NCBI RefSeq assembly: GCF_003334405.1
Contig: NZ_QOWM01000002.1
Length of the DNA stretch: 64,000 bases
Strand: one strand, 5' to 3'
Source: Escherichia coli
Lineage (GTDB): Bacteria > Pseudomonadota > Gammaproteobacteria > Enterobacterales > Enterobacteriaceae
Each line of letters begins with the position of its first letter. Within the stretch, counting starts at the first letter, position 1. Shown here piece by piece: positions 11,538 through 19,971 of this stretch. The notes below the pieces were generated by a model. It was given only the letters and a program-made list of their open reading frames with translations, ran no database searches and was not told where the DNA came from. The translations under genes were made by a program, and so were the position numbers.

Positions 11538-12692
11538 TTATGCCTGCCACGGATGAATGATTACGCCTTGCACCACGCGGTTAACGGTGCCACTGGCTGA
11601 TGGGGTATCCGGCGTATTGCCCATGTGCAGCGACTGCATCAGTGCAAACGTCTGGGCGTACATCAGGAAGCAAAATGCCTGCTCAACGTCGATAAAGTGA
11701 CGTGACGGTGGCAGGATGATATGTGGACCGGCAGCGACGATGTCGCTGCTTTCCGCGGCGATGGCGATTACACGCATTGCCTGGTTGTCACGGCGAAGTT
11801 CAGCCAGCAGATCAAGATCATACTGACGGGTGTAAGGGTGGCTGGAGACAAATACCACCACCAGCGTTTCGTCATCGACCAGCGATTTTGGTCCATGACG
11901 GAATCCGGTTGGAGAATCATAAAAGGCCGCCAGTTTACCCGCCGTCAGTTCCAGCACTTTCAGCGCCGACTCGCGTGCTGCGCCCTGTAAGCCACCGCTA
12001 CCGAGATAAACGATCCGTTTCCACGGTGCGTAACCAAACACACCTTCGCTGAAATCGCCCAGTGAGGTCAGGATCGCCTGGCAACGATCCGCCACGTCGC
12101 GGAAGGTTTGGCTGTTGATCGTCTCAGGTGCGAAAACCGCGAGGCAGCTGGCCATCATGGTGGTAATGCTGCTGGTCATCGCAAAGCCGCGATCGTGCGT
12201 TTCTGCGGGCATCAGCAGGGCAAACGCGTTATCGCTGTTGATCGCGTTTTGGTAAAGAGCGCCCGCTTCGTTGCAGGTGATCGGCAGGTGATAGCATTCC
12301 GGTACAAATTGATTTGCCAGTTCCACGGCTGCGACGCTTTCCGGGCTGTTGCCGGATCGACCGAAGGAGATCAACAGCAGCGGATGAGCTGGGTTCAGGT
12401 AGTCCATCGGATTGGTGACCAGATCGGTGGTCGGTACGGCGCTGAAGTTTTTACCGGTATGGCTGGCGAGCCACGGCGCGATGATGTCACCGATAAATGC
12501 CGACGTTCCGGCTCCGGTCAGGATGATCCGCAGATTCTCTTTGCGCAGTAACGGTTCAAGGAAGTTATTGAGCGCGGAACGTAGCGCGTCGATGTTGGTG
12601 AGTGAACGGATCCATGCGCGAGGCTGATGGCGGATCTCTTCTTCAGTCCATGTACCGGTTGCGGCGGCAGCAGGGGTGTAATTTTCTGGCAT
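11538..12692 (-). CDS. agaS: SIS-domain sugar-phosphate isomerase/deaminase AgaS
   Basis: 384-aa ORF with tandem SIS-domain features (…LTGAGTSAFIGD…); ATG confirmed. Confidence 0.9.
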   Translation of the reverse strand: MPENYTPAAAATGTWTEEEIRHQPRAWIRSLTNIDALRSALNNFLEPLLRKENLRIILTGAGTSAFIGDIIAPWLASHTGKNFSAVPTTDLVTNPMDYLNPAHPLLLISFGRSGNSPESVAAVELANQFVPECYHLPITCNEAGALYQNAINSDNAFALLMPAETHDRGFAMTSSITTMMASCLAVFAPETINSQTFRDVADRCQAILTSLGDFSEGVFGYAPWKRIVYLGSGGLQGAARESALKVLELTAGKLAAFYDSPTGFRHGPKSLVDDETLVVVFVSSHPYTRQYDLDLLAELRRDNQAMRVIAIAAESSDIVAAGPHIILPPSRHFIDVEQAFCFLMYAQTFALMQSLHMGNTPDTPSASGTVNRVVQGVIIHPWQA

Positions 12693-12734: not shown

Positions 12735-12870
12735 GCTTTCACTTGCCTTTCGTTTCATTTCACTTGGTGATGTCTTTCGTTGATTAAAATCTATAGAAAA
12801 GAAACTGAAAGTTCAATGGAGAAAAAAGAAATAAAACGAAATTTGTGATCGTTGAAAGAAAAGATAAAGG
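12735..12870. promoter_or_regulatory. AgaR operator-like repeat cluster upstream of agaS
   Basis: Repeated ctttcgttt / aaacgaaa-type motifs (ctttcgtttcatttc, tctttcgttg, aaaacgaaattt, gaaagaaaag) read in sequence; same motif family as in the kbaZ-agaR region. Confidence 0.45.
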
Positions 12871-12884
12871 AAGCAAAAGGGATT

Positions 12885-12970
12885 GCTGGATGCGGCGCAA
12901 ACGCTTTATCCGGCCTTGCGGTCACCAACTGTAGGTCGGATAAGACGCGTTAGCGTCGCATCCGACACCG
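12885..12970. repeat. REP/BIME element (two inverted REP units)
   Basis: gctggatgcggcgcaaacgctttatccggcc... and gtaggtcggataagacgcgttagcgtcgcatccgacacc match the E. coli REP consensus. Confidence 0.8.
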
Positions 12971-13042
12971 CTGCACAGATCAAAACGAAAGAAAAAGAAA
13001 GGCCTTACGGGGGAAGTGAAGGCCCAATAAAGGAGCAAACTA

Positions 13043-14176
13043 TCAAAACGAAGCTAATTGACCCTGAATCCAGATTTGTTGCACATGTAGCCCGCTATCC
13101 AGCGCAACGACGCTGGCGCGTTTGCCCGGTTTAAGCGATCCCAGAACACCATCAACACCCAGCATTCGCGCCGGATGCAGCGACGCCATATGGATGGCTT
13201 CCGCAGGCGTTACGCCCGTCAACTCGACCATATTGCGCACTGCCGCATCAACAGACAGCGTACTGCCCGCCAGCCCACCAGACGCGGTACGGACAACGCC
13301 ACCGTGCATCTGCACTTCTTCACCACATAACGTATAGCGACCATCCGGCATCCCAGCTGCCTGCATCGCGTCGGTGATCAGTACGATTCTCTCTTTCGCA
13401 CAGCAACAACACAGCGACATTGCCGCCGGATGCACATGATGACCATCGGCTATCAGTTCCAGCCAGGCGCGCTTGTCCGTTAATCCCGCGCCAACCATTC
13501 CCGGTTCGCGGTGATGTAAACCTGTCATCCCGTTATAGCAATGCACCAGGCCGTCGGCACCAGCATCAAATGCGGCGCGGGTTTGTTGCCAGGTCGCCGC
13601 GCTATGCCCCAGCATCACCCTTACGTTTTGCTGTTTAAGATGGCGGATGGCCTGCAATGCCCCTTCTTTTTCCGGTGCCAGCGCTACCACACGTAAGGTG
13701 TGCTGAGAAACGGCAATCAACTGATCCAGCTCGGCAATTTCAAGCTCGCGAAACAACTCCGGCGGATGCGCGCCTTTATTCTGCGGCGTGAAGTACGGTC
13801 CTTCGAGATAACTCCCCAGCACTTGCGCACCAGGTCCGCCGCGTTGGCAACGTTGAGCAATACGTTTCAGCGCCGCATGAATGGTATTAAGCGGCGTGGT
13901 TACGGTGGTCGGTAACCAACTGCCGACACCTTCGCGTGCCTTGTGCATTGCCAGCTTGTCGAGTACATCCGGCGCGTCATCCATTACATCAACGCCCGCA
14001 CCACCGTGTACATGGGTGTCGATGTAAGCAGGGCAGAGCAGTTCCGCATCGCGTTCAGTCACGCCCGCTGGAATCGGTTCGATTGCTGCGATGACACCGT
14101 CAGCAATACGCAACTGATGGTCATCGAGCCATCCCTCTTCAGTCAGCAGCCTTCTGGCGCGCAGAACGTGTGTCAT
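13043..14176 (-). CDS. agaA: N-acetylgalactosamine-6-phosphate deacetylase, full length
   Basis: Track ORF trimmed to ATG at 14176 (MTHVLRARRLLTEEGWLDDHQL...), NagA-like amidohydrolase motifs (…YIDTHVHGGAG…). Its ATG overlaps the agaF stop as ATGA. Confidence 0.85.
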   Translation of the reverse strand: MTHVLRARRLLTEEGWLDDHQLRIADGVIAAIEPIPAGVTERDAELLCPAYIDTHVHGGAGVDVMDDAPDVLDKLAMHKAREGVGSWLPTTVTTPLNTIHAALKRIAQRCQRGGPGAQVLGSYLEGPYFTPQNKGAHPPELFRELEIAELDQLIAVSQHTLRVVALAPEKEGALQAIRHLKQQNVRVMLGHSAATWQQTRAAFDAGADGLVHCYNGMTGLHHREPGMVGAGLTDKRAWLELIADGHHVHPAAMSLCCCCAKERIVLITDAMQAAGMPDGRYTLCGEEVQMHGGVVRTASGGLAGSTLSVDAAVRNMVELTGVTPAEAIHMASLHPARMLGVDGVLGSLKPGKRASVVALDSGLHVQQIWIQGQLASF

Positions 14177-14607
14177 ATTCCTTCCTCGACCGGACATTCT
14201 TCATGGCAGCGGCCTAACTCGTCCACCAGACTGGTCAGCCCTCGGTGTCCACACTCCAGCGCCTGTACACGGAATTCTTCACCGCTTAACCCTTCGCGCT
14301 CCAGCACCATCTCCAGTAGCAGTTGCAAATTGGTGCCGGTGATCACTTCACAGCCCGGTTTTTGCATCGCCAGCGTTGAAGCTACGCGAAACGGCGTGCC
14401 GCCCAGCAAATCCGTCAGAAAAACAATGCCGTCTTCACAATCCAGTTGGGCGATGGCCTCTTCAAGCTGCGATGTAAGCAGCGCGGTGCTTGAGGTTTCC
14501 GGAAAATCGATGGCGATAAACTGCGATTGCTCACCGAGAATTTGCTTCATTGCTTTTTCCATGCCGCTGGCAAACCCGCCATGCCCTGTCAAAATAATAC
14601 TTAACAT
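14173..14607 (-). CDS. agaF: PTS N-acetylgalactosamine-specific EIIA component
   Basis: 144-aa ORF MLSIILTGHGGFASGMEKAMKQILGEQ..., mannose-family IIA. Confidence 0.85.
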   Translation of the reverse strand: MLSIILTGHGGFASGMEKAMKQILGEQSQFIAIDFPETSSTALLTSQLEEAIAQLDCEDGIVFLTDLLGGTPFRVASTLAMQKPGCEVITGTNLQLLLEMVLEREGLSGEEFRVQALECGHRGLTSLVDELGRCHEECPVEEGI

Positions 14608-14624
14608 CTAATACCTCATTGTAT

Positions 14625-15503
14625 TTAAAGGAAATGGCAGAATTTACCGACGATGCCGAGAACCACGGTAACTGCAATCAGACGCAGCGGACTCCAGCCG
14701 CGGCGTACCAACCAAAACATGGTCAGGGTGTAGACCAACGGTAAGAAGGCCGGCATCAGTTTGTCGATAACATCAGCCTGTAACTTAACCACTGCGTCGC
14801 CCGCCGTGATTTCCAGCGTGGTGCTTAAACGAACATAGGTTGCCACCAGCGCACCGATTACCGTCATCCCAACGATAGACGCAGCATGGCCGACTTTTTT
14901 GGTATTCGCTTTAATCAGTGGAATCGCCGCCACGCCCATGCGGTAAGCATAATGCGCCAGACCAAAACGCAGCCCCAGGTGTACCACGTTGAACAGCACA
15001 ATAAAGACGACTGCGCCAAGAATGGAGCCTTGCAATGCCAGACTGGCTCCAATCCCGCCACAAATCGGCAGTAGCGTTAGCCAGAACATTGCATCGCCAA
15101 TCCCGCCAAGCGGCGCACCGACGGCAATTTTGGTGCTCTGAATACTGTTAACGTCCTGCTTAGAACGCTCCATCGCAAGGATAATGCCGATAACAAACGT
15201 CACCAGAAACGGATGGGTATTGAAGAAACCCATATGCCCCTTCATGGCGCGCGCCAGGTCGCGTTTATTAGTGTGGATCTTTTTCAGAGCAGGCAGCAGA
15301 CCGTACAACCAGCCAGAAGCCTGCATACGTTCGTAGTTAAAAGACGCTTGTAACAGCATGGAACGCCAGGCGACGCGGTTGATATCTTTTTTCGTCAGCT
15401 CCGCGCCAATGCTCTGATCTTCATACACGTTTTCATTGACGCCAGTCAGCAATGTTTCTTCGTTTTCACTGACGTTCGGCAGGGTGGTTTGATTAGATGC
15501 CAT
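14625..15503 (-). CDS. agaE: PTS N-acetylgalactosamine-specific EIID component
   Basis: Track ORF begins at a TTG; trimmed to first ATG at 15503 (MASNQTTLPNVSENEETLLTG...), 292 aa; paralogous to AgaD. Confidence 0.85.
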   Translation of the reverse strand: MASNQTTLPNVSENEETLLTGVNENVYEDQSIGAELTKKDINRVAWRSMLLQASFNYERMQASGWLYGLLPALKKIHTNKRDLARAMKGHMGFFNTHPFLVTFVIGIILAMERSKQDVNSIQSTKIAVGAPLGGIGDAMFWLTLLPICGGIGASLALQGSILGAVVFIVLFNVVHLGLRFGLAHYAYRMGVAAIPLIKANTKKVGHAASIVGMTVIGALVATYVRLSTTLEITAGDAVVKLQADVIDKLMPAFLPLVYTLTMFWLVRRGWSPLRLIAVTVVLGIVGKFCHFL

Positions 15504-16272
15504 CTTCAAATTCCTCTTTCTGTGCCGCAGGTTGAGTCGGTTCAGGAGATTTACGCAGCAAGTCGATCAGCGCCATCGCCAGCGCAGCGGCAGCAATAGC
15601 CAGCACTGGTAACTTGAGCCAGGCGGCGGCAACAAAGCCCAGGATGAAGTAGGGGATGTAGACGTTTTTCATCATGATTTTCAGCAGCACGGCAAAACCG
15701 ATTGCTGGCATGATGCCGCCCGCGACGCCGAGGCCGTCGATTAATCGTTGCGGCAGGACATCAATGATGGTTTTTGCATGTTCCGCGCCGAAGTAGATAG
15801 GCAGGAAAGCGCAGAGAAAATAGAAAATGCCGAGTGCCAGCAGTGCCAGATAGTTCACGCGTTCAATGCCGCGAGTATCGGCGTTCTCCGCCATCCGGTC
15901 GCAGCGAGACATCACGCCGGACATCACCGAGAACAGGAAGGTAATCCCCATCTGTACTGCGACAGCGAAAGGTACGGCGACACCTACTGCGACATCGGGT
16001 TTCACGCCAGTAGTAATGGCAAACGCCGTGCCGACGATAGTACCGATAATCACGTTAGGCGGCTGTGCGCCCGCCAGCGGGGCCAGCCCCATCCACACCA
16101 GTTCCAGCGTACCGCCGGTTAAAATTCCGGTATGCAGATCGCCAAGTACCAGCCCGACCAACGGGCCGAGGACCACCGGGCGGTGCATATGGGTTAGGCC
16201 GTTAAACATATCCAGGCCAGCGATAAAGGCGATAATGCCCAACGCAAATGCCTGCAACAGGCTGATTTCCAT
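15493..16272 (-). CDS. agaW: PTS N-acetylgalactosamine-specific EIIC component, full length
   Basis: 259-aa hydrophobic ORF MEISLLQAFALGIIAFIAGLDMFNGL...; paralogous to AgaC. Confidence 0.85.
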   Translation of the reverse strand: MEISLLQAFALGIIAFIAGLDMFNGLTHMHRPVVLGPLVGLVLGDLHTGILTGGTLELVWMGLAPLAGAQPPNVIIGTIVGTAFAITTGVKPDVAVGVAVPFAVAVQMGITFLFSVMSGVMSRCDRMAENADTRGIERVNYLALLALGIFYFLCAFLPIYFGAEHAKTIIDVLPQRLIDGLGVAGGIMPAIGFAVLLKIMMKNVYIPYFILGFVAAAWLKLPVLAIAAAALAMALIDLLRKSPEPTQPAAQKEEFEDGI

Positions 16273-16778: not shown

Positions 16779-18059
16779 TTATTGGCCTTCACAGGCTGTG
16801 TGGTACTGCGCCAGGATGTCCTGAATATGGTTGATAATGAGTTCCCGTGGCGTTGGCTGCAGCTCGCCGGAGCGAACTTTCACGTACTGCAGCGGCAGAT
16901 ACTGGCTGATCAGCGGCAGCGGAATTGGTGAATCCGCCAGATTACGTACCAGATGAGCGAAAGCGTCATCAATCTGGCTGTCCGGCCAGTAATAGCGCAC
17001 GCGATCCGAGTAGCTATAACCACGCGCCAGACGACGCGCGTTGCCGTCACCGTGGTAGTGGCTTTGCCAGTATTCCGGGCGGTCGAGCATCACGTCTTCC
17101 AGCACCTGACGCAGACCAGAACAGGCTTTCGCTGGCACCAGTTCTTCTTCAATCGCCGCCAGAGAGAACAGAGCTTCACGCAGGGCGAAGGTCAGCGCTG
17201 GGCCAACTTTCAGAATGGCAAAGTGGTCAATCACCAGCTGGCGCAGCGATTGCGGCGTTTGATAATCGGTAGAGTGCGCTTCGAAAATCAGCGTTTCGTA
17301 GTTTTCGACCATCTGGCTTAAGGCGCTCGCTTTGGCGGGCTGATAATCAATAACGTTGGTGTGATCGAATTCGACGCCGGGTTGAACCACCAGGGCAATG
17401 ATGCGTGGCCAGATGGCATTCAAACCTTGCTTTTCAAAGGCGTGACGATGGGCTTCCAGCGTGGCGCGGGCGGCATCCGGCGTGGTGACCGCCAGCTCGC
17501 TTAAGGTTTCATGCGCGCCGCCAGGTACCGGCACTTCGGTACCAATGACATACTCCAGATCGGCTTCGCCAAAGTGTTCAAGACAGGTTTCTTCCGCCAC
17601 TTTCGCCAGACGGGCGGCGCGTTCAGCCACGATGTCATCAGTTAAGGGAATCGGATCGTCCTGACAGGACATGCTGCAATCAAGGTGGATTTTTTTGAAT
17701 CCTGCCGCAACGTAGCTTTTAATCAAATCATCGGCATTGGCCATTGCCTGAGCGGCCGGCAGGTTTTGCCAGCGGTTTGGCCCCAGATGGTCACCACCCA
17801 GAATCAACGCATCCTGCGGGAAATTCAACGAGTCGGCGAGCTGACAAACAAAGCCGCGAAAATCGGCGGGCGTCATTCCGGTATAACCGCCGAACTGGTC
17901 TACCTGATTGGAGGTTGCTTCAATCAGTAACGGCGTTTGGTTTGCACTGGCGTAGCGGATTGCAGCCTCCAGCACCAGCGGATGTGCGGAACAAACGGCA
18001 TAAATTCCATTTGTTTTGCCCGCTTTGTGCTGTCTCACCATTTCTGTCAGATGTTTCAC
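16779..18059 (-). CDS. kbaZ: Tagatose-bisphosphate aldolase non-catalytic subunit KbaZ
   Basis: 426-aa [40 protein letters not shown]...; the first codon in the track is GTG, so the exact start is uncertain. Confidence 0.85.
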
Positions 18060-18093
18060 TTTCCTCTCCAGTTCAGATTACTGCGATATTAAT

Positions 18094-18300
18094 CTTTCGT
18101 TTTGTTTCAGTTGATACTGCGTCATGGTGAGATAAAAATAAAACGAAAGATAATAGTTTTCTGATCTGATTCACAAAAGAAACATAATGAAAGTCACTGA
18201 AACGAGAGTAGCTTGCGTCAATGGGCAAGGTGGGCTTGCATTTGCTTAATAGAAAGGCGTTAATAGGCAAAACGAAATGAAACGAAAGTTTTACGAAAGG
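18094..18300. promoter_or_regulatory. Divergent kbaZ/agaR control region with AgaR operator-like repeats
   Basis: Multiple ctttcgtttt / aaaacgaaag / gaaacgaaag motifs in both orientations between the divergent kbaZ and agaR starts. Confidence 0.5.
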
Positions 18301-18307
18301 ACTTACT

Positions 18308-19117
18308 ATGAGTAATACCGACGCTTCAGGTGAGAAGCGAGTGACTGGCACCAGCGAGCGACGAGAACAGATCATTCAGCGTCTGCGACAGCAAGGGAGT
18401 GTGCAGGTTAACGATCTGTCGGCATTGTATGGCGTATCTACTGTGACGATCCGCAACGATCTGGCGTTTCTGGAAAAGCAGGGGATCGCTGTGCGTGCCT
18501 ATGGTGGCGCGTTGATCTGCGATAGCACGACGCCGTCAGTCGAGCCATCAGTGGAAGATAAAAGCGCACTGAACACCGCGATGAAACGCAGCGTTGCGAA
18601 AGCTGCCGTTGAGTTGATTCAGCCAGGTCATCGGGTTATCCTCGATTCCGGGACCACCACTTTTGAGATTGCTCGTCTGATGCGCAAGCACACTGACGTA
18701 ATTGCGATGACCAACGGTATGAACGTGGCTAATGCGTTGCTGGAAGCGGAAGGCGTTGAGCTGCTGATGACCGGCGGGCATTTGCGCCGTCAGTCGCAAT
18801 CTTTTTACGGCGATCAGGCTGAGCAATCGCTGCAAAATTACCACTTCGATATGCTGTTTCTTGGTGTAGATGCGATCGATCTGGAGCGCGGCGTCAGCAC
18901 ACATAATGAAGATGAAGCTCGTTTAAACCGTCGGATGTGCGAAGTTGCGGAACGGATCATCGTGGTCACCGATTCCAGTAAGTTCAATCGTTCCAGTTTA
19001 CATAAGATCATTGATACTCAACGTATCGACATGATCATTGTTGATGAAGGCATTCCTGCGGATAGCCTGGAAGGACTGCGAAAGGCTGGGGTTGAAGTGA
19101 TTCTGGTCGGGGAGTGA
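18308..19117 (+). CDS. agaR: DeoR-family repressor of the aga locus
   Basis: 269-aa ORF with N-terminal HTH (…[28 protein letters not shown]…) and DeoR C-terminal domain. Confidence 0.9.
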
Positions 19118-19171: not shown

Positions 19172-19636
19172 TCAATGGGTTTCTTCTGTTTCTCGGGTGA
19201 GGGTTTCCCAGTCGGCAGGAGGATGTCCTCTTTTTAACATTTTGCTGAATACGGTATAGGCATCTGTTTTTTTACCGTAGGTGCGCAGAGTGTTTTCATC
19301 GTTCATCCATCCCAGAATGATGACTTTCTCTTTTTCACTATAACGAAAGAAGAGACGATAACGACCAGCACCAAATTTTACCCGTGACCAGTCTTTATTT
19401 TTCCCAGAGCCTAACGACTTGCCATGACGGAATGCCGGTGATGATGGATTGACCGTGATATGCTCCTCAATCACTTTATGGACTACCGCCAATAACTTTG
19501 TGGCGGCTTTTCTCTGATAATTTTCAGGATCTTTTCCCTTTAATGTCTCGACTTCGGCAACTAAAGCGTCGTAGGTTTCCTGAAAACAGGGATGAGCATA
19601 TAGCGCCCAACCATTAACCCTTTGTGGAAAATCCAT
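19172..19636 (-). CDS. yhaV: Type II toxin YhaV (ribosome-dependent mRNA endoribonuclease)
   Basis: 154-aa ORF MDFPQRVNGWALYAHPCFQETYDALVAEVETLKGKD...; its start overlaps the prlF stop (TAATG). Confidence 0.9.
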   Translation of the reverse strand: MDFPQRVNGWALYAHPCFQETYDALVAEVETLKGKDPENYQRKAATKLLAVVHKVIEEHITVNPSSPAFRHGKSLGSGKNKDWSRVKFGAGRYRLFFRYSEKEKVIILGWMNDENTLRTYGKKTDAYTVFSKMLKRGHPPADWETLTRETEETH

Positions 19637-19971
19637 TATTCGTCGTCGCCAATCTCATCATCAATGTTGACGTCCATGCCAGCGACAAGTTTCTTTCCTT
19701 GTTGAATGTTGAATGGACGAGTTTTTTGCGGGTTGTTCTGGATATCTGCATCCAGAAAACGCAAAAATGCATTCATAGTATGATCCTCCTGTTCATCTCC
19801 CAGTCGGCACATAAATACTTGCCCACCAGGCAGAATTTCGTAATGAATGCTGTCCTGGCCTGGCTTCAGTTTTAAGGCCTCACGCACTGGCGCGGGGATA
19901 GTTGTTTGTCCGCGTATCGTGACCTTTGATTCAGTGGTCAGTACAGCGTGAGAGCGAGCATTAGCGGGCAT
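19636..19971 (-). CDS. prlF: Type II antitoxin PrlF (SohA), AbrB/SpoVT-like
   Basis: 111-aa ORF MPANARSHAVLTTESKVTIRGQTTIPAPVREALKLKPGQ... with an acidic C-terminus. Confidence 0.9.
   Translation of the reverse strand: MPANARSHAVLTTESKVTIRGQTTIPAPVREALKLKPGQDSIHYEILPGGQVFMCRLGDEQEDHTMNAFLRFLDADIQNNPQKTRPFNIQQGKKLVAGMDVNIDDEIGDDE

Follow-up and report, generated by a model that had tools for sequence, protein, structure and literature searches.

The promoters of the Escherichia coli aga/gam cluster carry numerous short CTTTC-type repeats, which raises the question of which copies serve as operators for the repressor AgaR, and which do not. The CTTTCGTTT repeats at these promoters belong to an already known AgaR system, described since 2004. 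The promoters of agaR, kbaZ, and agaS are all described as bound by AgaR in papers that cite the original work (Ray & Larson 2004, Mol Microbiol 51:813; cited in PMC3668189, PMC4694137, and PMC8667592). It is an autoregulator that represses agaZ and agaS by direct binding (PMC4694137), and it forms tetramers (PMC10991401). Deletion of agaR raises agaA and agaS expression 50-175 fold (PMC3668189), and one sequence given as an AgaR site ‘from PkbaZ’, CTTTCGTTTCATTTTCGTTT, has been used in a synthetic promoter, for which AgaR-dependent repression was measured (PMC8667592). In evolution experiments, loss of agaR derepressed both operons, and glucose or tagatose uptake was gained.

The aga regulon matters for the use of mucin sugars in the gut. 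Given this role and the repeated hits in evolution experiments, an accurate operator map is useful for engineering. The AgaR operator map is not in itself surprising, and it constitutes an example of a regulatory array that is recoverable from sequence alone. Beyond the accessible literature, the present analysis adds a comparative map that separates selected CTTTC copies (six boxes) from unselected ones, a strict box spacing with a convergent pair at both core promoters, found in about 30 genera, and the reassignment of a third repeat run to a covarying terminator.

The Aga Cluster and Its Regulator

The window, i.e., the whole 64-kb stretch of DNA that was analyzed, comes from an E. coli chromosome with an intact aga/gam cluster (Table 1), and the segment 12600-18400 is 100% identical to many E. 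coli chromosomes. The cluster is the full version and not the K-12 form, in which 2.3 kb are deleted between agaW and agaA (PMC3668189). As agaW, agaE, agaF, and agaA are intact here (13043-16272), unlike in K-12, the strain should be able to use N-acetylgalactosamine. As far as the K-12 aga operators are described in three papers (PMC3668189, PMC4694137, PMC8667592), the organism, the three promoters, the repressor, and the motif are the same as here, and nothing of substance differs apart from this intact agaW-agaA segment. The annotation pipeline names agaA nagA. A yhaV-prlF toxin-antitoxin pair (19172-19971) lies immediately downstream of agaR and convergent to it.

The agaR product matches the AgaR equivalog model (NCBIfam NF040755, 465 bits for a cut-off of 260), and its Pfam domains are HTH_DeoR and DeoRC. 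Each of the two intergenic regions, kbaZ-agaR and agaA-agaS, was found in over 5300 of the 5426 complete E. coli genomes.

Table 1. Genes, proposed AgaR boxes, and other features of the two aga intergenic regions (window coordinates; mismatches are counted against the reported AgaR consensus).
Feature	Position	Strand	Description
agaI, agaD, agaC, agaB, kbaY, agaS	agaS 11538-12692	all -	
AgaR box S1	12744-12767	+	TGCCTTTCGTTTCATTTCACTTGG; 31.8 bits, 0 mismatches
Predicted agaS promoter	12788-12816	-	predicted -35 TTGAAC 12816-12811, 17-nt spacer, -10 TAGATT 12793-12788
AgaR box S2	12822-12845	-	CAAATTTCGTTTTATTTCTTTTTT; 30.3 bits, 1 mismatch; just upstream of predicted agaS -35
REP/BIME-type palindromic insert	12880-12967	.	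inverted repeats I1, I4, I6; between terminator and agaS promoter
Terminator T tract	12982-13000	-	TTTCTTTTTCTTTCGTTTT; directly 3' of hairpin; candidate weak box 12981-13004
Intrinsic terminator hairpin	13000-13025	-	9 pairs and one bulge, -10.2 kcal/mol (RNA fold)
agaA, agaF, agaE, agaW, agaV, kbaZ	agaA 13043-14176, kbaZ 16779-18059	all -	
Conserved block, kbaZ ribosome-binding site			spacer alignment
AgaR box Z1	18091-18114	+	AATCTTTCGTTTTGTTTCAGTTGA; 28.5 bits, 3 mismatches
Conserved block	18093-18119		Z1 and TTGATACTG
Predicted kbaZ -10	18114-18119	-	CAGTAT; predicted start ~18106-18107
AgaR box Z2	18129-18152	-	TATCTTTCGTTTTATTTTTATCTC; 21.0 bits; over predicted kbaZ -35
Conserved block	18133-18157		Z2
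Conserved block	18158-18178		CRP-type site TCTGATCTGATTCACA
CRP-like site	18160-18175	.	TCTGATCTGATTCACA; 1 mismatch to TGTGA-N6-TCACA, strongly conserved
AgaR box Z3	18173-18196	-	TGACTTTCATTATGTTTCTTTTGT; 27.5 bits, 1 mismatch
Conserved block	18173-18193		Z3
Conserved blocks	18233-18245, 18249-18266		candidate agaR -35 TTGCAT, -10 GTTAAT
Predicted agaR promoter	18236-18264	+	predicted -35 TTGCAT 18236-18241, 17-nt spacer, -10 GTTAAT 18259-18264
AgaR box R1	18268-18291	-	AAACTTTCGTTTCATTTCGTTTTG; 35.1 bits (window maximum), 0 mismatches
Conserved block	18270-18290		R1
agaR	18308-19117	+	divergent from kbaZ

Repeat Enrichment and Box Model

Five exact copies of CTTTCGTTT occur in the window, at 12747(+), 12983(-), 18094(+), 18141(-), and 18280(-), for 0.78 expected, a count reached by none of 100 whole-window dinucleotide shuffles. 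All five lie within the kbaZ-agaR (248 nt) and agaA-agaS (350 nt) intergenic regions, which together make up 598 nt, or 0.9% of the window, and have a GC content of 36-43%. Because both regions are AT-rich, the shuffling was repeated locally, with dinucleotides kept. TTTCRTTT is found five times in the kbaZ-agaR region (0.13 expected) and four times in the agaA-agaS region (0.24 expected), and neither count was reached in 2000 local shuffles. Enrichment over a shuffled background, which had been set beforehand as a test, is confirmed by both types of shuffling. A repeat finder also returned the CTTTCGTTT-type copies, as direct and inverted repeats of 10-18 nt. The initial annotation had claimed several copies of ctttcgttt/aaacgaaag in both regions. 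Both orientations are indeed present in each region, far above chance, but 12735-12870 contains only one exact 9-mer, the remaining copies being 8-mers or variants.

The AgaR consensus that Ray & Larson reportedly proposed in 2004 is WRMMTTTCRTTTYRTTTYNYTTKK (24 nt). This string was absent from the results of a full-text literature search, and its backing is indirect, as it comes from two perfect matches in the window. The motif search suggested earlier was run with this consensus and bore the proposal out: with up to three mismatches allowed, it returned six sites for 0.14 expected, all in the aga regions, the perfect ones being R1 and S1. The consensus was also used to seed a 24-nt position matrix, trained on 208 unique non-Escherichia sites. 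This matrix is partly circular, since its training sites were picked with the same consensus; the alignment-based footprints given below are independent of it. The box core reads mCTTTCGTTTYRTTTCnYTT, or CTTTCGTTTYRTTTCnYTT in its shorter form, within a unit of about 24 nt, and consists of two 10-bp direct half-repeats, each with a TTTC, on the same face of the helix. The seven best matrix scores in 64 kb (16.9-35.1 bits) are all located in the two aga intergenic regions, the next best score being 8.3 bits.

Six of these sites, four in the kbaZ-agaR region and two upstream of agaS, are very probably AgaR operators, judging from sequence comparison. The regulator family, the published binding, a near-identical published site, and the conservation across genera all support the earlier proposal of operators for a DeoR-type repressor, AgaR, arranged in a multi-site layout.

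Conservation Across Genera

A scan with the AgaR protein, using one genome per species, yielded 80 loci from about 30 enterobacterial genera, including Escherichia, Klebsiella, Citrobacter, Enterobacter, Kluyvera, Raoultella, Yersinia, Serratia, Buttiauxella, and Cedecea; Salmonella arizonae and diarizonae are also among the loci sampled. The orthologous loci retain the gene order kbaZ<>agaR and ...agaA/agaF-agaS, and the kbaZ-agaR spacer measures 249-251 nt in 63 of 74 loci. When the 73 unique kbaZ-agaR spacers are aligned, sharp conserved blocks appear (Table 1), with diverged DNA between them. Upstream of agaS, the 72 unique sequences are conserved at 12745-12768 (S1) and at 12780-12850 (promoter candidate and S2). 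Over 1.24 Mb of orthologous loci, the two aga regions account for 517 of the 528 matrix matches with scores of 12 bits or more. In nearly every genus, the box centers of the kbaZ-agaR region, counted from the agaR ATG, are at 30(-), 126(-), 170(-), and 208(+) nt, and the six boxes keep their position, strand, and spacing across the approximately 30 genera carrying agaR.

These alignments bear on whether the repeats could be a by-product of AT-rich promoter DNA, such as UP-element-like T tracts or curved DNA, with no specific reader. The intergenic regions are AT-rich and the motif itself is T-rich, as such an origin would have it, but composition-matched dinucleotide shuffles almost never reproduce the repeat counts. 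Furthermore, certain C and G positions in the boxes are invariant across genera while the flanking AT-rich sequence is not conserved, and scores in the other intergenic regions of the window do not exceed 8.3 bits. A compositional origin of the repeats is barely conceivable.

Another possibility is that the boxes are read by a different regulator, for example, a paralogous DeoR-family repressor (SrlR or GatR), NagC, or a nucleoid protein. AgaR and SrlR are clearly homologous, AgaR scoring 227 bits with the SrlR family model, which is below the SrlR cut-off. The operators proposed for TagR of E. coli Nissle also contain CTTTC (PMC12226905), so related proteins may read similar words. Nevertheless, in all the genera sampled, the boxes are confined to the two aga promoters, beside an agaR orthologue. 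The published binding at the aga promoters is assigned to AgaR, deletion of agaR alone derepresses the regulon, and Pz and Ps are induced by N-acetylgalactosamine but not by GlcNAc, the NagC signal (PMC3668189). Reading of the six boxes by a regulator other than AgaR is highly improbable.

The conservation also serves to sort the remaining copies. Among the 73 unique spacers, no conservation is seen over 18194-18232, which includes a gaaacgagag copy, nor at the acgaaag copy 18294-18300, except for the AAGG of the agaR ribosome-binding site. The copies 12771-12790, 18197-18210, and 18292-18301 (in which the conserved AAGG corresponds to the agaR Shine-Dalgarno sequence) are not conserved outside Escherichia and are, therefore, not to be counted as operators. 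The copy 12736-12740, which is not conserved either, was likewise rejected. Such CTTTC copies are specific to E. coli and probably due to chance.

The kbaZ-agaR Region

Z1 is antisense to kbaZ and lies over the predicted -10 and +1 positions of this gene. It is conserved in the 73 unique orthologous intergenic regions, and in other genera its distance to the agaR ATG is fixed at about 208 nt. The TTGATACTG block, which includes the kbaZ -10 candidate, is also conserved across genera. Z2 forms with Z1 a 16-nt inverted repeat with 94% complementarity, and it is conserved as well, scoring at least 12 bits in the majority of loci, where about 170 nt separate it from the agaR ATG. As the predicted kbaZ -10 hexamer sets the start, the center of the CRP-like site would be at about -61.5. 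Motifs of the TGTGA-N6-TCACA type are not enriched in the window (31 observed for 26.8 expected). The presence of CRP and repressor sites in the aga intergenic region is mentioned, with reference to Ray & Larson, in a further paper (PMC12226905). Z3 abuts the CRP-like site, with a 3-bp overlap, and is conserved at a fixed distance of about 126 nt from the agaR ATG.

A simple sigma-70 scan called none of the kbaZ, agaR, and agaS promoters. The agaR promoter is, thus, predicted from conservation and spacing only, its -35 and -10 hexamer blocks being conserved across genera. Two sigma-70 candidates on the + strand (18111-18139 and 18127-18154) were not adopted, because the conservation blocks fit the agaR promoter at 18236-18264 better. 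R1, which is conserved, lies over the predicted agaR start site, at about 18271. At 18288-18269, it reads CTTTCGTTTCATTTCGTTTT, one T apart from the published AgaR site (PMC8667592, Table S3). R1 is the predicted autoregulatory operator of agaR and, at the same time, a far-upstream operator of kbaZ.

The word AGAAAGG (CCTTTCT on the - strand) at 18251-18257, within the spacer of the predicted agaR promoter, is invariant across genera. It is located 32 nt, or about three helical turns, from the first TTTC of R1 and may be an extra AgaR half-site.

The Region Upstream of agaS

S1, which is antisense to agaS, is situated downstream of the predicted promoter of this gene, at about +14 to +37 from the start predicted near 12781. 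It is conserved, its distance to the agaS start codon being about 60-66 nt in the other genera. The TTGAAC and TAGATT hexamers are conserved across genera, as is S2, and the S1-S2 register distance is 92-94 nt in 55 of 58 loci.

The REP/BIME-type insert falls outside the operator array. Other genera lack it (gap fraction 0.9), and it constitutes the main variable part of the spacer among E. coli strains. A search against Rfam returned nothing above the gathering threshold, the only sub-threshold matches being to the naRNA4 model (RF02564), at this insert; the naRNA4 family is REP-derived. Strain E69 carries a longer REP/BIME-like version, without agaA.

Two further words were noted in this region. 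TGTGATC (12844-12850) is conserved across genera directly upstream of S2, with its center about 70 nt from the predicted agaS start, and could be a CRP half-site, the second half being poor. CRP dependence is reported only for the kbaZ promoter. In many genera, a semi-conserved, AT-rich TTATTGATCTATAA-like word is present in the middle of the spacer between S2 and the terminator tract. This spacer is otherwise variable, with a length of about 102 nt, and is where the REP element lies in E. coli; the word could be a bend or an IHF-type site.

The Predicted Terminator After agaA

The initial annotation had placed a third run of the repeat at 12981-13000, at the 3' end of agaA. The run, aaacgaaagaaaaagaaagg, is actually at 12983-13002 and outside agaA, 41 nt past the stop codon (13043-13045) and directly after a hairpin. 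On the - strand, the agaA stop is followed by GGGCCTTCAC-TTCCCCC-GTAAGGCCT and then TTCTTTTTCTTTCGTTTT, the hairpin starting 17 nt after the stop codon and being followed by UUUCUUUUUCUUUCGUUUU.

Considered alone, the E. coli hairpin is no better than shuffled sequence (z = -0.21), which is why evidence from covariation was needed. Compensatory changes are found at all five alignable base-of-stem pairs (29 sequences), and the orthologous hairpins average -15.3 kcal/mol (58 unique contexts). In the orthologous loci, a hairpin followed by CTTTCTTTTCCTTTC is found at the corresponding position, and the stems differ entirely in sequence, examples being GGCCTTACG/CGTAAGGCC, GGTTTGTGG/TCACAAACC, and GTCTGTCGC/GCGACAGAC; CTTTCTTTTCCTTTC itself, with up to two mismatches, is found in 60 of 71 loci. 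The agaA terminator was not called by a terminator scan, because its stem is bulged. These comparisons make 12982-13025 the predicted Rho-independent terminator of the kbaZ-agaVWEFA transcript, and such a terminator fits the existence of two operons with their own promoters, kbaZ-agaVWEFA and agaS-kbaY-agaBCDI. The third run is, on the same comparisons, predicted to be mainly the T tract of this terminator, and at best a weak auxiliary AgaR box.

Like other Rho-independent terminators, this one combines a GC-rich hairpin and a T tract after the last stop codon of the operon, with a covarying stem. It differs from them in that its T tract is broken by unusually well conserved C residues, in a 5- or 10-nt TTTC register resembling that of the AgaR box. 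From Escherichia to Yersinia and Serratia, these TTTC units are maintained despite a drifting stem sequence.

This peculiarity leads to the question of whether 12981-13004 could be a true AgaR operator that acts on the agaS promoter from a distance, doubles as a T tract, and loops to S2 and S1. At 16.9 bits, the E. coli segment has double the score of any site in the 64 kb that lies outside the aga regions. It is oriented on the same strand as the upstream boxes, and two CTTTC pentamers are retained at a 10-bp interval. In those 60 of 71 loci, CTTTCTTTTCCTTTC keeps its C positions although the adjacent stems have changed completely, and the box score exceeds that of about 98% of 376 other terminator-like T tracts in the orthologous loci. 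In 38 of 60 loci, the distance between the tract and S2 is 99-103 nt, similar to the 95-96 nt that separate Z3 from R1. Nevertheless, the median score is 6 bits in other genera, compared to 20-35 bits for the accepted boxes, and the tract is within three mismatches of the consensus only in Escherichia-type loci. Its distance to S2 varies by clade (47, 62, 66, 86, 102, 127, 152, or 159 nt, the shortest value being that of the Enterobacter group and the longest that of E. coli) and shows no clear helical phasing (resultant 0.26-0.67 depending on the period, two clades being dominant). Moreover, the tract does not lie at a promoter, being separated from that of agaS in E. coli by the REP insert, and a hairpin and T tract after a stop codon are fully explained by termination.

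A genuine distal operator at this position is, consequently, possible but unlikely. Slightly more doubtful still is the specific proposal that the C-interrupted T tract of the kbaZ-agaVWEFA terminator would act as a distal, low-affinity AgaR operator, looping to S1 and S2. If true, one DNA segment would both terminate the transcript of the upstream operon and anchor the repressor of the downstream one.

In most non-Escherichia genera (e.g., locus L021, 2700-2720), a box-like CCCTTTCATTRTGTCTC, with about four mismatches to the AgaR consensus, is found right after the agaA stop codon. As it is on the 5' side of the terminator hairpin, the hairpin is flanked by two TTTC-type words. E. coli lacks CCCTTTCATTRTGTCTC and has a degenerate counterpart, CTCCTTTATTG, at 13028-13042.

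Repression Model and Related Regulators

At both promoters, the promoter-proximal box is antisense to the gene and the upstream boxes are sense, so that a convergent pair brackets the core promoter; the box centers are separated by 82 and 38 nt at kbaZ and by about 78 nt at agaS. Such a geometry is expected if an AgaR tetramer bridges two boxes. In the absence of inducer, tetrameric AgaR would occupy the six boxes, probably cooperatively, and may bridge the convergent boxes flanking each core promoter. This occupancy would exclude RNA polymerase and CRP, and exclusion would repress kbaZ-agaVWEFA, agaS-kbaY-agaBCDI, and agaR itself, until growth on N-acetylgalactosamine or galactosamine lifts the repression. 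From this arrangement, we infer where exactly transcription starts, how the boxes are bridged or looped, and which promoter step is blocked. The abstract of Ray & Larson is said to place the AgaR sites upstream of the start sites, whereas the predicted starts put Z1 and S1 at or downstream of +1; the start-site predictions may, therefore, be off.

The same-family repressors GlpR and DeoR are oligomeric and use several operators per control region, some of them far upstream, with cooperative or looping repression combined with CRP activation. Their operators are palindromes, whereas the AgaR box resembles 10-bp TTTC units repeated directly in tandem; for AgaR, it is whole boxes that converge around the core promoter. 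Another parallel is offered by tagO1 and tagO2, the TagR sites of E. coli Nissle 1917, where a DeoR-family gene is also divergent from a tagatose-pathway operon, with a CRP site beside the operators and CTTTC words, and whose resemblance to aga is noted by the authors (PMC12226905). The TagR sites, which are predicted only, differ by their sequence (CTTTCAAAATGAAAGTAAA), their number (two, compared to six), and their inducer.

In Citrobacter, AgaR-like box pairs scoring 13-16 bits are present about 8.5 kb beyond agaR (L028 16532-16614, L031 16532-16614, L039 16513-16536). They are located 126-200 nt upstream of a gene for a 419-aa protein that, by eye, resembles the solute-binding component of an ABC transporter, and could point to an extra member of the regulon.
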